DNA of 64,000 bases from Octopus vulgaris (taxonomy: Eukaryota), in NCBI GenBank assembly GCA_951406725.2, contig OX597840.1:24614001-24678000 (forward strand). Reading direction: 5' to 3'. This document shows, piece after piece, positions 820 through 49,339 of this stretch. Both the position numbers and the translations under genes were made by a program. Below the pieces are notes generated by a model. The model ran no database searches. It saw only the letters and a list, made by a program, of their open reading frames with translations, and had not been told where the DNA came from. Positions within the stretch are counted from its first letter, which is position 1; every line of letters begins with the position of its first letter.

Positions 820-1272
820 AAACGGAACAGATATATTACTGGAAGAATGCGAAAAGACGATGATGGGGGTACACTCCAACATGGTGGAATCGTACCTAGA
901 CGAATTTCTTTGGAAGGAGCAATAAGGGAAGTGTGGAAAGGAATGTCTTGAAAACATTCTGAAGCACCTTTCCGAACGTTTCACATTCAAGTGAATCAAA
1001 TGAACTGCAAGAACTGAGATATTCAATTTTCTACTTGCTGTTTGCTTTTTATTTACTTCAATTAATTTGTGTAAAAAAATGATATACATAAAAAATTTTT
1101 TTTTAAATCTTTGTTTATAAAAAAATTTTTATTTACTTCGTTTCCAAACATGTATCGCGCATGCGCCAATCTATTCATTAGCATATGCGCAAGTTGTAAG
1201 ATCGATTACTTACGACCAGCTAGCGGGGATGCGGGACTGAGTGCACCGGGACCACTGTTCACTAGTAGTACC
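820..1272 (+). mobile_element. 3' fragment of a second Merlin element (C-terminus plus right TIR)
   Basis: Translation GVHSNMVESYLDEFLWKEQ*GKCGKECLENILKHL matches the Merlin C-terminal SYLDEFxW motif. It ends in gcaccgggaccactgttcactagtagtacc, the same TIR family as at 3143-3378, 5432 and 16008. Confidence 0.75.
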
Positions 1273-1378: not shown

Positions 1379-2230
1379 TTAAAATCTTGCAATCCCCTCT
1401 AACAGTTTTTCAAAAAGATCGCAACCTTCGTACCTTTTGCGCCACATAATTTCACAGAGACCGGAGTCAATCATAGAACTCTGCTTAACACAGGCCCAAG
1501 GGCCTTCCATCCGTGGCGACTTTGACTTTGACCGAGTGCCGTGCTTCTCCGCTTTATGGCGAAATTGATAACCCTCGATCTCCGGAATATGAGAGTAAGA
1601 TCTCCACAGATCACTAACGACCGTGGTTCCGGGGAGAACCGATTGGCGGATGCATTCTTCGAGTGTGTCGCGATCCCGACATGTTATTGTATAGAGAAAA
1701 ACCTGCTTGGCCTTGCGACACACTCCTTTATAGACCCACTGGTGGGGCGGCCGACCTCCAAGTCTACATTTCCTCCTCGAGAAGACTGTCTCGTCTATCT
1801 CGACAACCTTCCCAGGACCACCTATCTGAACTGGGTTGAGGAGTAAGTCCTCTGCACAGACTTCTCTCAAACAGCTGGTGTAGTCAACAGCTGCAGTGTG
1901 ACTCACACCCAGCTCGTCATAACAATAACGTATCGTGGTCAGCTTCTTGACCCAAGAATACAAGAAAAGGAGGATAGTTCGCAGAGGAAGCGAGGTGCCT
2001 TCCAGCCATGTACCTTTCCTAACAGATAGAGACTGGTCACAGCCTTTCCGTGTGCAGCGCCAGCGAACGCTCCGATCTTTCACTTTGCGTTTCATGAAAT
2101 GTCTCTTTTTACATCTTTTCTTTGGAGGTATTATACCCTTCTCTGCAAAGAAAGCTACCGCATCCGCTTCGGTCCTAATCGTGTTGAACAAATCCATGAG
2201 GCCATACGGTTTAGTTGCAGCCACAGCCAT
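1379..2230 (-). CDS. Merlin/IS1595-family transposase-derived protein (283 aa), intact ORF, candidate domesticated gene
   Basis: N-terminal Cys/His zinc-ribbon-like region (C..H...WRC....C), SVRKGTWLE, QIGGPGKVVEIDET (D1), LPGTTVVSDLWRSY (D2), MEGPW (E) and LCEIMWR. No stops or frameshifts, and no TIRs are visible enclosing it. Confidence 0.85.
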   Translation of the reverse strand: MAVAATKPYGLMDLFNTIRTEADAVAFFAEKGIIPPKKRCKKRHFMKRKVKDRSVRWRCTRKGCDQSLSVRKGTWLEGTSLPLRTILLFLYSWVKKLTTIRYCYDELGVSHTAAVDYTSCLREVCAEDLLLNPVQIGGPGKVVEIDETVFSRRKCRLGGRPPHQWVYKGVCRKAKQVFLYTITCRDRDTLEECIRQSVLPGTTVVSDLWRSYSHIPEIEGYQFRHKAEKHGTRSKSKSPRMEGPWACVKQSSMIDSGLCEIMWRKRYEGCDLFEKLLEGIARF

Positions 2231-2884
2231 ACTTCCTCAATACAACAGTAGGGGAAAAGTGCAAAGAGGCGATCGAAATGCAAAAAAAAAAAAAAAAAAA
2301 ATGTGGTATGCAACAGACAGCAAACAGAAATAAAATATTAACAGATTGGGGGGGAAAATAATCACAAAATTAACACGGGGAAATGTACAAAAGGGGGCGA
2401 TCAAAAAACAAGAAAAAAAAACGTGTAATATGAAACAGGTAGGAAACAAAAAAGTTAAATAGAAGTGTTGAAAATAATTACAGGTAGTGAGTAAAAATAT
2501 CCACTTATAAGTTAAAAAAATATAGTCAAGTTAAAGAACACACCAGAATAATTAATGTGCACGTGGTCGTGTTGCTCTCAGAAAACTATCGCAAACAGTA
2601 GGATTCTTCATGCGACAACATGGAATAAATTCTAAAGTACACGTGGTTCTGTTGCTCTTTGGGTACTTTCACAAACAGTAGAAGGTATCTTCAGGTATTT
2701 GTCGATTTGGTTAGAATAATCCAAATGCGACAACATGAAATAAATTCTAAAATACGAAAGCTTGTGAAAAATGTTGACAGTGTTCAGCGTGAGAAATTAC
2801 ACCAGTATATGAAGTTTCAAACAGTTCAGTTTAAAATATATAATCAAAAATATCTGTGAACCAAATTGAAGAGATTTAAATTAC

Positions 2885-3084
2885 CTCTTGCACATTTCAT
2901 TCAGCGAAATAAAGCAATGTTTTTTTCTTTCTCTCTGAGGAAATATATTATTGTAACTCAGCAATGTTTTATAGAAGCAGGATTATACGTTTGTAGAATA
3001 TCTTTGCAGAGTCTTTCAAACATGATACATATTGATGATTCTTTAAAAGTAAAAAATACTTTTTAGCCAATTTCAGGCGATTTT
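2885..3084 (-). promoter_or_regulatory. Predicted non-coding 5' exon homologous to the ZNF 5' UTR at ~10090-10293
   Basis: Minus strand shows acceptor tattctttcAG at 3086/3085 and donor GAG|GTAATT at 2885/2884. A ~120-bp core (2952-3075) appears identical to 10161-10284. Confidence 0.55.
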
Positions 3085-3142
3085 CTGAAAGAATACGAAA
3101 ATAATATAAGACATAGAATATGTTTAAAAGGTACAAATTTAC

Positions 3143-3378: not shown

Positions 3379-4585
3379 CAAATTTACAATTGTTTTGATA
3401 AATTGTAGACGTAAACCTTAAATTATAAATGAATGAGATACAGTAATTATAATAGCGACCCCTGGATATTAAATCCTTAACAAAACTCTATCACCCTCTC
3501 TCAAACATATATATATATATTTTTTTTTATCTAGTTTCAGCTCACGAGCTGTGGCCATGCTGGGGCACCGCCATTAATGTGAAGCTTTCACGGCGAAGGT
3601 AAAGAATACGCACACCCGGTGTTTAGGGACACGACGAAAACGGGTTGTGCGTTTTCTTTACCCCTGCAAATTGTAACACGATGGGGAGGGGTCAACGGAA
3701 TCCAGAGATTTATTTAAGGAATGGATAACAGCTCTCATACGAAAGAAAGAAAGATAATAATTAGGCGCAACTTCGGTATAAGTACCGGATATATTTCAAG
3801 AAAGGTTTTTTTTTTTATATGGAGGGTTTAGGGTTTAGGAGAAAAGGGTTTGTGTTATCTTCAGAAATGTACACAAAGTCACGTGTGTACCTATTCCGAA
3901 GGTTCGCCAATAATTACATTATTGTGTACCAAAATGCATGCAAATAAAGATAATTATGTGTTGGAGTGATGCAACAAAAAAAAAAAAAAAGGGTTAATAC
4001 TCACTAATAATCAGACGCCCTTACTCGCCAAAAAGGGTTACGGGTGCGTTTTCTTTACCCCTGCAAACTGTAACACGATGGGGAATTAACACGTTGTGCA
4101 AATGGTGATTTGTCACGGTTAATTTTAAGTGATATGTGTGTCTAGAAGGAAAAATATCAGCCTCTCGCTACATGTGGTTAACGAACACTGGGACGGAGTT
4201 AAAATGACGGATTAACTCGTCAACGTCAAAACAGCAACTGAAGTTGACCTCTCCGGTTTTGGCGCGAGTTGCTATGTGTATCCTTCCGCCGCAAGCTACA
4301 AGTGAGCGGAGTAACGTACCCTTGCACGAAATAGTTCGATGCCAGTGTACATAAGAATAACCAAAACTGCAATGGAATATCTAAAAGAAAGAAGGCTGTG
4401 GTCATGTATTTTCGTCTTTGTTTAGTGAAATAATTAATTTCTCTTGCACATTTCATTCAGTAAAATAAAAGTTTTTTTTTCCTCCCAGAGGAAATATTTT
4501 ACTGGGCCAAAATAATTCTATTATTTTATACACACGCTTTCCGTACGTATACGGAAAGCGTGTGTATAAAATAATAAATTATTTT

Positions 4586-5350
4586 GTATGTTAATTGTTT
4601 AAATTATTTTCCATTGCTTTAGTTTTTTTTACACGCGTAACAATTAAATTAATTTAACAATTAAGAAAAAAAAATTTAGGGTTAGGGTTAGTTACAGGAT
4701 GTTGTCTCAGTTTTAGACGCAGCAAATGATTTTAGCTCAAAAGAGAGCATAGGATTGGTTAAAATTCGAAAAATTAAACTACGTTAAACAAACAAATTAC
4801 AATTTTCTCAAGAAAGCCAAGTGAAAATAATGTTTTCTTTTGACACATATAGGCGCAGGAGTGGCTGTTTGGTAAGTAGCTTGCTAACCAACCACATGGT
4901 TCCGGGTTCAGTCCCACTGCATGGCATCTTGGGCAAGTGTCTTTTGCTATAGGCCCGGGCCAACCAATGCCTTGTGAGTGGATTTGGTAGACGGAAACTG
5001 AAAGAAGCCTGTCGTATATATGTATATATATATATATATATAAGTGTGTGTGAATATGTTTGTGTGTCTGTGTTTGTTCCCCCCCCTAGCATTGCTTGAC
5101 AACCGATGCTGGTGTGTTTACGTCCCCGTCACTTAGCGGTTCGGCAAAAGAGACCGACAGAATAAGTACTGGGCTTACAAAGAATCGGGGTCGATTTGCT
5201 TGACTAAAGGCGGTGCTCCAGCATGGCTGCAGTCAAATGACTGAAACAAGTAAAAGAGTGAAGAGTAAAATTCTCCAAGTATACGAAGTTTTAAAGTGTT
5301 TAGTTAACAAGAAATTTTGTTGAAATCTGGCCTTCAAAAGGAAAAGATCC
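4586..5350. mobile_element. Right half of a GGATC-family foldback MITE, interrupted by a SINE
   Basis: Matches the right arm of the complete copy at 48698-49339, including the ttagggttagggttag tract and the terminal ttcaaaaggaaaagatcc. Confidence 0.75.
4852..5265 (+). mobile_element. tRNA-derived SINE, family A (ggcgcaggagtggctgtgtggtaag head)
   Basis: A-box-like tggctgtgtgg, B-box-like ggttcagtccc, internal (TA)n(TG)n and an aagtaaaagag tail; more than 15 copies in the window. Probably one of the described Octopus SINE families (name not verified). Confidence 0.85.
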
Positions 5351-6140: not shown

Positions 6141-6309
6141 TGAATATCTCACAGTTCTTGCAATTCATTCGAAAATGCCACCAAACAAAAAAATAAAATG
6201 TTGAAGTTCATTTGAGTTCCTCGAATGTGAACCATTCTGAACACACACAGACATATACATACATTCACACGCATGCATTTATACATATACACATGCATAC
6301 AAAATAAAT

Positions 6310-6647
6310 TAGAGATAAAAACCACTATTAGGCAAATCAAACAGTGAAAAACATAAACCAAAACATAGAAATAAAATTAATTAATATAATATACAAAATA
6401 TATAAAATATAAAATTCAGAATATAATTATAATTTAAAGTTAAAAATTTAAAATTATTAATTTATATTTATAAATTTATATATATATATATATATATATT
6501 TATTTTTTATTTATAAATATAAATTAATAATTTTTAATTTAAATTTAAATAATTTAAATTTTGAATTTTATATTTTATATATTATATTAATTAATTTTAT
6601 TTCTATGTTTTTCACTGTTTGATTTGCCTAATAGTGGTTTTATCTCT
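6310..6647. repeat. AT-rich imperfect palindrome (~165-bp arms, (TA)n centre)
   Basis: agataaaaaccactattaggcaaatcaaacagtgaaaaac is mirrored by gtttttcactgtttgatttgcctaatagtggttttatct. Confidence 0.85.
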
Positions 6648-48697: not shown

Positions 48698-49339
48698 GGA
48701 TCTTTTCCTTTTGAATGGCAGATGTCAACACAATTTCTAGTTAATTAAACACTTTTAAACTTCGTATACTGGTAGAATGTGTTTATAAAACATCATTTTC
48801 TCTTGGTTTTATTGAGAAAATTCTATAGTTTGTAAGATATTTCGTCTGAAAATCCGAGCATTTCGGCAATTTTAACCAATCGATTACCTCCATTCAACTA
48901 AAATCATTTGCTGCGTCTAAAACTGAGACAACATCCTGTAACTAACCCTAAACCTCCCCCTAACCCTAACCCTAACTTTTTTTTTCATAATTGTTAAATT
49001 AATTTAATTTCATTGCTTTAGTTTTTTTTTACACGTATAACAATTAAATTAATTTAACAATTAATAAAAAAAAAATTTAGGGTTAGGGTTAGGGGGGAGG
49101 TTTAGGGTTAGTTACAGGATGTTGTCTCAGTTTTAGACGCAGCAAATAATTTTAGCTCAAAAGAGAGCATAGGATTGGTTAGAATTCGAAAAATTAAACT
49201 ACGCTAAACAAACAAATTACAATTTTCTCAAGAAAGCCAAGAGAAAAAAATGTTTTATTTTGGCACATTTTACCAGAACATGAAGTTTTAAAGTGTTTAG
49301 TTAACTAGAAGTTGTCTGCCATTCAAAAGGAAAAGATCC
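48698..49339. mobile_element. Foldback Merlin-type MITE (GGATC family) with internal CCCTAA/TTAGGG repeats
   Basis: TIRs ggatcttttccttttgaatggcaga / tctgccattcaaaaggaaaagatcc; 8-bp TSD agacaccg/agacactg (one mismatch); the arms stay complementary over most of the element. Confidence 0.85.

Follow-up and report, generated by a model that had tools for sequence, protein, structure and literature searches.

A probably host-retained Merlin-derived protein gene beside a zinc-finger leader in Octopus vulgaris

An intact open reading frame (ORF) in Octopus vulgaris is probably a host-retained gene for a Merlin-derived protein, and its sequence predicts that the protein can no longer cut DNA. It would be one of three separate cases that are linked to zinc-finger genes. 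The ORF lies in a stretch of 64,000 nucleotides at G000:C27:24614001-24678000, which we will call the window. Table 1 lists the features of the window and two intact relatives elsewhere.

Table 1. Positions of the Merlin-derived ORF, the sequences around it, and the other intact family members
Feature	Position	Strand	Remarks
Intact Merlin-derived ORF, 283 aa (P0001)	1379..2230	minus	PF12762 match
N-terminal part, aa ~38-130	1841..2119	minus	conserved Cys/His and predicted homeodomain-like three-helix unit
RNase H-like DDE core, aa 139-262, D146/D207/E242 kept	1445..1816	minus	alignment and structural match
Rewritten, shortened segment around the catalytic Glu	1457..1555	minus	holds a 6-bp unit whose copy number differs between individuals
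Left subterminal region of the element	2707..2875	minus	73% match to broken L049 along 184 nt
Decayed left TIR, GGATC type, GG lost	2854..2877	minus	weight matrix; remnant also in duplicate B
Leader of local C2H2 zinc-finger subfamily	2880..3140	minus	splice-acceptor-like site before 3084
3' end and right TIR of unrelated GGTAC-type Merlin	833..1272	plus	common to both duplicates
Further GGATC end	5270-5350
GGATC-type MITE, 642 bp	48698-49339		best copies 95% alike
Second intact member (L035)	G000:C21:23750796-23751863		no indels relative to the family majority; among C2H2 genes
Third intact member (L033)	G000:C29:22209176-22210126		among C2H2 genes; counterpart labelled O. sinensis LOC115225419

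The open reading frame and its protein

An earlier sequence-only reading of this DNA had claimed an uninterrupted ORF of 283 codons, and we found the frame to be without any break. The encoded protein matches PF12762 (DDE_Tnp_IS1595) with an E-value of 9.7e-6 and 26.1 bits, which is just below the curated cut-off of 27. P0032, which is 98% identical to P0001, passes that cut-off at 27.9 bits. In a phylogenetic tree, the ORF nests within a genomic Merlin family.

The catalytic triad (D146, D207, and E242) is retained, as the earlier reading had it, and lies in columns that do not vary in an alignment of 13 sequences. The motif changes that it described are also present: WVFGG, VNH, HTQ..E, and SYL.EF.WR are all altered in the window ORF, and the frame is shortened by a net 14 codons relative to the family majority sequence. 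We ruled out that the odd motifs stem from a compensated frameshift, since the other two frames contain no family-like sequence there.

To place these changes along the protein, we used 69 positions that are conserved in 38 distant Merlins, of which 20 lie at aa 1-135 and 49 lie after. The window gene is altered at just one of the 20 N-terminal sites, and at 14 of the 49 later sites it has a change or a deletion. The catalytic region is altered, then, and the N-terminus is spared. From the loss of the motifs, we infer that the protein has lost the ability to cut.

An AlphaFold model of P0001 has a pLDDT of 78.5. Residues 139-262 superimpose on integrase cores (best Z 8.8, rmsd 2.0, 78 residues aligned). 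Residues 80-128 superimpose on the engrailed homeodomain with a middling score (Z 5.2, rmsd 1.6, 48 residues aligned), and the scores of ~aa 77-130 against homeodomains generally are also middling (Z ~5). The segment around the catalytic Glu (residues 228-253) is modelled as a low-confidence coil. The sequence-only reading had suggested comparing the predicted structure with active Merlin transposases. Our control, the canonical Merlin relative P0037, does form the Glu helix, yet its model is equally low in confidence in this segment (residues 221-263), so we counted none of this as evidence of inactivation and argue for inactivation from the sequence. A Foldseek search with the P0001 model gave no match at E <= 0.001. 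We also found no longer or fused form of the protein, which is a weak test, and no relatives in viral contigs.

Cys and His residues at aa 40-64 of P0001 are common to distant Merlins and suggest an N-terminal zinc site. This contrasts with descriptions of Merlins as lacking the zinc finger of IS1595. There are also weak FLYWCH matches, below the cut-off, in P0004 and P0006.

The ends of the element and the zinc-finger leader

The sequence-only reading considered the element to be TIR-less and enclosed by neither a TIR pair nor a target-site duplication (TSD). The second part stands: we found no right end in the 20 kb leftwards and no TSD, and the zinc-finger sequence that is due beyond the insertion was not found on the far side. 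But "TIR-less" was wrong, as there is a decayed left TIR at 2877-2854. We found it with a weight matrix built from 11 ends of the family, and its score was reached by 3 of 1,000 shuffles. The adjoining 184 nt are 73% identical to the left end of the broken copy L049 (E = 4e-23), and L058 and L032 give weaker matches. We read the end at 2877 as the element's own left end because its orientation and its distance from the ATG fit, but it could be the end of a separate MITE. The distance is ~650 nt in the window, as compared to ~470-500 nt in L049 and L032; local duplications intervene.

The broken copies show that TIRs of this family start with GGATC, and L050 and L059 have 8-bp TSDs. Of the three TIR types that the earlier reading named (GGTAC, GGATC, and GGCGATC), GGATC alone belongs to this family. 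One TIR variant matched nowhere in the window, but the second variant occurs there. The TIR at 1272 does face the wrong way, as had been stated: it reads leftwards and closes another, plus-strand Merlin. This GGTAC-type end sits where the right end of the window element would be.

C2H2 exons surround the ORF, which bears out the description of the setting as a zinc-finger cluster. The 260-bp leader next to the left end has 40 scored matches, 39 of them on C27. In all 24 of the other leader copies that we fetched, C2H2 motifs follow within ~100-480 nt, and the acceptor-like site is common to 21 of the 24. In the window, the Merlin end begins at the very position where the other copies of the leader run on. 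Because the element's left end borders on a leader that is followed by a C2H2 exon at 24/24 other loci, we conclude that the element took the place of a zinc-finger gene and sits in its leader; the coding part was not found beyond. We considered a donor-like site at 2886, but it is absent from the zinc-finger copies. There is a second, partial copy of the zinc-finger leader at 4436-4504, upstream of the first.

If the leader is still used, then the ORF might be transcribed. Of 24 listed sequencing runs, 20 contain at least half of the sampled words from this locus; they come from nine studies and two organisms. None of the runs that contain the ORF is recorded as RNA, which speaks neither for nor against transcription. 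We mapped four of the 20: a DNA run and the runs X2, X10, and X12 (77-99 million letters), whose RNA nature is guessed or unknown. Contigs from X2, X10, and X12 lie over the ORF and over parts of the sequence up to 2914. The leader-like contigs from these three runs stop at 3084, while the DNA run continues past it. Most of the leader-like contigs have multiple differences and are probably derived from zinc-finger paralogs. RNA coverage had been proposed as a check on the ORF, and what these transcriptome-sized, putatively RNA runs provide is a weak hint. We consider it likely that the ORF is transcribed from the zinc-finger gene's promoter. None of the three runs covers 3992-4475, nor is a splice joint listed for any of them; holes between contigs prove nothing, and the first exon is unplaced. 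The unspliced leader would be 854 nt long with 7 upstream ATGs, and zinc-finger genes have 4-8.

Copies, frame survival, and selection

With the window ORF as the query, we scored 40 of 100 candidates from a DNA search. Two copies on the same contig are 91-92% identical to the window ORF and the next match is at 74%, with nothing in between among the 40. A single copy had been expected, and this was not borne out; both of the close copies are frameshifted. Because they share flanks with the window and their frames are broken, we consider them to be segmental duplicates. The window element does not have dispersed near-identical copies, as the two close ones share its flanks.

A protein search, with 137 of 1,338 candidates scored, indicates that the family is old: among those 137, the copies are roughly 45-62% identical and mostly broken. 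Two further full open frames of the family were found among them, at C21:23.75 Mb and C29:22.21 Mb. We rejected a single origin for the three intact genes, which do not form one clade (AU test, p = 6e-52). All three have C2H2 exons within 10 kb, whereas just one of the 20 broken copies does (Fisher p = 0.002). Both broken duplicates also lie among zinc-finger genes, so this location is insufficient for keeping the frame. We looked for a captured zinc-finger leader at C21 and C29 and could not demonstrate one; the upstream matches there are common repeats.

The C21 gene is the best-conserved case across species: complete counterparts of it carry the labels O. vulgaris, O. sinensis, and O. bimaculoides. 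In P0034, a gene model with the label O. vulgaris, the N-terminal half of this Merlin is linked to a short tail that resembles a zinc finger; either the transcript is truly spliced in this way or the model is mispredicted.

The same family includes four near-identical proteins (P0036 and P0110-P0112) with intact frames that are catalytically stripped: both catalytic Asp residues are replaced by His, and the Glu segment is deleted in frame. P0036 has no ortholog in this genome, where the best match is 52-58% identical over its length.

How surprising is it that three frames are intact? Of the 31 loci that we oriented, 29 had the length needed for projection on the family majority sequence: 5 focal loci and 24 other copies. 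Every one of the 24 has stops or frameshifts (2-13 each, with a mean of 7.1). Under a negative-binomial fit, the probability of zero lesions is 0.003 per copy, and the probability that at least 3 of 27 are intact is 8e-5; genome-wide, the chance of an intact copy is higher than fitted because the family pool exceeds the copies examined. (One TIR variant of the family has 430 matches.) Luck would also give more copies with one lesion than with none, and no copy among those examined has exactly one. Length variants of the window ORF in other individuals (+6 and -30 nt) leave the frame open.

Besides retention, the reading that survives best is that the ORF is a relic: a passively transcribed copy that kept its frame by luck, or whose use ended with the family, and which is now drifting. 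We regard this as quite possible, if less than probable. That both duplicates lost their frames fits with it, as do the seven upstream ATGs in the leader and the size of the pool from which the scored candidates were taken. Also, the window copy has lost conserved sites at a rate of 0.15, which is like the broken copies (range 0.03-0.33). But three separate loci are intact, with no one-lesion class beside them, and the C21 gene is whole in two lineages that are dated to ~34 My apart in PMC10700109.

That paper gives split times of 2.5 My (O. sinensis) and ~34 My. Whole-frame counterparts labelled O. sinensis exist for all three intact genes, and C21 has one labelled O. bimaculoides. The search for orthologs in other octopods that the sequence-only reading proposed gave a mixed picture for the window ORF. 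A protein labelled O. sinensis is 98% identical, and this counterpart has annotated gene models. In contrast, the closest protein labelled O. bimaculoides is 52% identical and is the counterpart of C21. Contigs from organism B have 3 synonymous and 3 non-synonymous differences from the window ORF, plus an in-frame 6-nt unit, which are too few to test. One of the synonymous sites and the 6-nt unit are common to run X2.

We fit a codon model to 24 of the 29 loci, with the five short ones dropped; the tests are approximate. The dN/dS of internal branches, which is the value for active elements, is 0.19, and that of the broken tips is 0.67. On the stem that leads to the window ORF and its duplicates, before the duplication, dN/dS is 0.30 (p = 3e-6 against 1, p = 0.001 against 0.67, and p = 0.056 against 0.19). 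Because 0.30 is barely separable from 0.19, part of this constraint may predate the insertion. Since the duplication, dN/dS on the window branch is 3.1, which is not different from 1 (p = 0.11), and that of the duplicates is 0.91. A dN/dS below 1, which had been proposed as support for domestication, is seen on the stem before the duplication, and there is no dN/dS signal of purifying selection after it. For the other intact genes, dN/dS is 0.49 at C29 (p = 0.006 against 1) and 0.73 at C21, and neither differs from the broken copies.

Just 1 of the 12 polarised changes on the window branch is synonymous, and the ORF differs from the duplicates by 6-7%, which is near the divergence of the flanks (6-9%). 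This divergence and the recent dN/dS are as expected for a relic. On the other hand, the stem is constrained, and the recent changes are conservative: the 11 polarised amino-acid changes in the window ORF have a mean BLOSUM score of +0.91, as compared to -0.38 for 232 changes in broken copies (p = 0.008). In the broken duplicates, the mean of the 15 changes is -0.27, which is not conservative. Across the three intact genes, conserved sites are substituted at 2/60 N-terminal and 26/140 C-terminal positions (p = 0.003). Broken copies show a weaker asymmetry (0.11 vs. 0.16, p = 0.024), and the comparison of intact to broken N-termini gives p = 0.068. Overall, selection on the window gene is mixed.

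The sequence-only reading proposed host retention. Frame survival, the constrained stem, the 98%-identical protein from the sister species, and the two parallel intact loci speak for it; the lack of a dN/dS signal of purifying selection since the duplication and the 52% identity of the nearest protein labelled O. bimaculoides speak against it. We judge that the ORF is, on balance, probably a protein gene that the host kept.

A possible role, and known systems

The history of the family suggests what a retained protein might do. The second variant of the GGATC-type end has 14,634 exact matches genome-wide, and MITE ends are 96-97% similar to the left end of L032, which is the youngest broken copy of the family. 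The best copies of the window's GGATC-type MITE are just 95% alike, so nothing suggests that it is moving at present. Among the scored matches, we found no intact mobile copy of the GGATC-type family, which appears to be extinct. From these divergences, we infer the order of events: insertion, local duplication (6-9%), MITE burst (~5%), extinction, and species split (<1%). With this order, the window gene therefore would have coexisted with an active sister transposase.

The sequence-only reading described the Merlin remnants near the ORF as broken, which does not hold for the Merlin at 3 to ~820 (minus strand): it is open across the catalytic domain, with canonical motifs. It belongs to another, younger family, with an intact 88%-identical relative at C5:2661267. 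Elsewhere, L100-L102 and L107 form a young intact Merlin family with TIRs that start with GGCAC and proteins that are 92-98% identical, and L104 and L105 belong to another such family, with two identical 305-aa copies; both families are possibly still mobile. The window also contains a long AT-rich imperfect palindrome at 6300-6640.

We propose that an old GGATC-type Merlin landed within the leader of a zinc-finger gene of the C2H2 type and is likely transcribed from that gene's promoter, and that the host likely kept it as a protein that is predicted to be dead for transposition. The spared N-terminus would bind the terminal repeats of its own family. By occupying GGATC-type ends, or by pairing with active transposase, the protein would have damped the family, which drove a large MITE burst after the gene was fixed and then apparently died out. 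Constraint might have been strong early and weak late because the burst followed fixation and extinction followed the burst. Early constraint, the sparing of the N-terminus, and recent relaxation would fit with such a repressor, but we offer this mechanism tentatively. A broader proposal, which is similarly speculative, is that zinc-finger clusters are recurrent sites of domestication, and that cut-dead repressors that bind transposon ends were kept at least three times here, as well as in the P0036 lineage, from one family with a MITE burst.

It is improbable that the locus acts through RNA instead, with a transcript of the zinc-finger cluster giving rise to small RNAs against the family and the frame being kept for the stability of the message. 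This would account for open frames at all three loci despite little constraint on their amino acids, for the scarcity of synonymous changes on the window branch (1/12), and for the tie to zinc-finger clusters, but the conservative changes and the sparing of the N-terminus point to selection on the protein, and the ORF is only ~74% similar to the copies that it would target. It is similarly improbable that the ORF encodes an immobile yet active transposase, a past or present helper for GGATC-type MITEs: D, D, and E are all kept, thousands of MITE ends are present, and no intact mobile copy of the family is among the scored matches, but 14 of the 49 conserved sites in the catalytic region are changed or deleted, the MITE ends match the distant L032 group, the window's MITE shows no current movement, and the parallel protein P0036 lacks both Asp and the Glu segment.

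In the literature outside most subscription journals, we found no domesticated Merlin in animals, just candidates in protists; the S1 appendix of PMC8101967 may list these octopus proteins. PMC8101967 reports 191 Merlin matches in O. bimaculoides and gives candidate domesticated Merlins from Stentor, Symbiodinium, Perkinsela, and Bodo. A metazoan survey that includes Octopus does not mention Merlin, IS1595, or ISXO2 in its main text (PMC10027918), and in PMC13282606, Merlin appears only in a repeat table. C2H2 genes and transposon control are discussed in PMC12513265 and PMC10547256, and the former calls the role of cephalopod C2H2 clusters in transposon control an open question. The window case links the co-option of transposases to these expanded clusters. 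Also, one can still trace the parent family, the insertion point, the dead duplicates, and a MITE burst that matches, so the early steps of domestication are directly testable.

Among Merlin transposons, which are relatives of IS1595 and IS1016 (PF12762), the window protein is 33-57% identical to database relatives outside its own orthologs, and it keeps the DDE residues. Its family has the TIRs starting with GG and the 8-bp TSDs that PMC8101967 describes. Unlike those transposons, the window element has a decayed left end only, its Glu motifs are rewritten, and it spread solely by segmental duplication. The protist candidates in PMC8101967, which were argued from ORF preservation and synteny as far as the available text goes, are similar in that an ORF is preserved without working ends and its copies arise by duplication of segments. 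The window case differs from them in having an animal host, a traceable parent family and insertion point, and three events that are tied to zinc-finger clusters.

Host genes derived from transposases (CENP-B/pogo, THAP9, ZBED, PGBD, and SETMAR) and repressors of such origin, for example the KP protein of the P element, are similar to the window case in that an immobile copy borrows the expression of a host gene and spares its DNA-binding part as the catalytic part decays. In contrast to these, the window gene belongs to another superfamily, we found no host domain fused to it, and its recent constraint is weak. The domestication of transposases is well known; what would be new here is a Merlin case in an animal that is tied to a zinc-finger leader.
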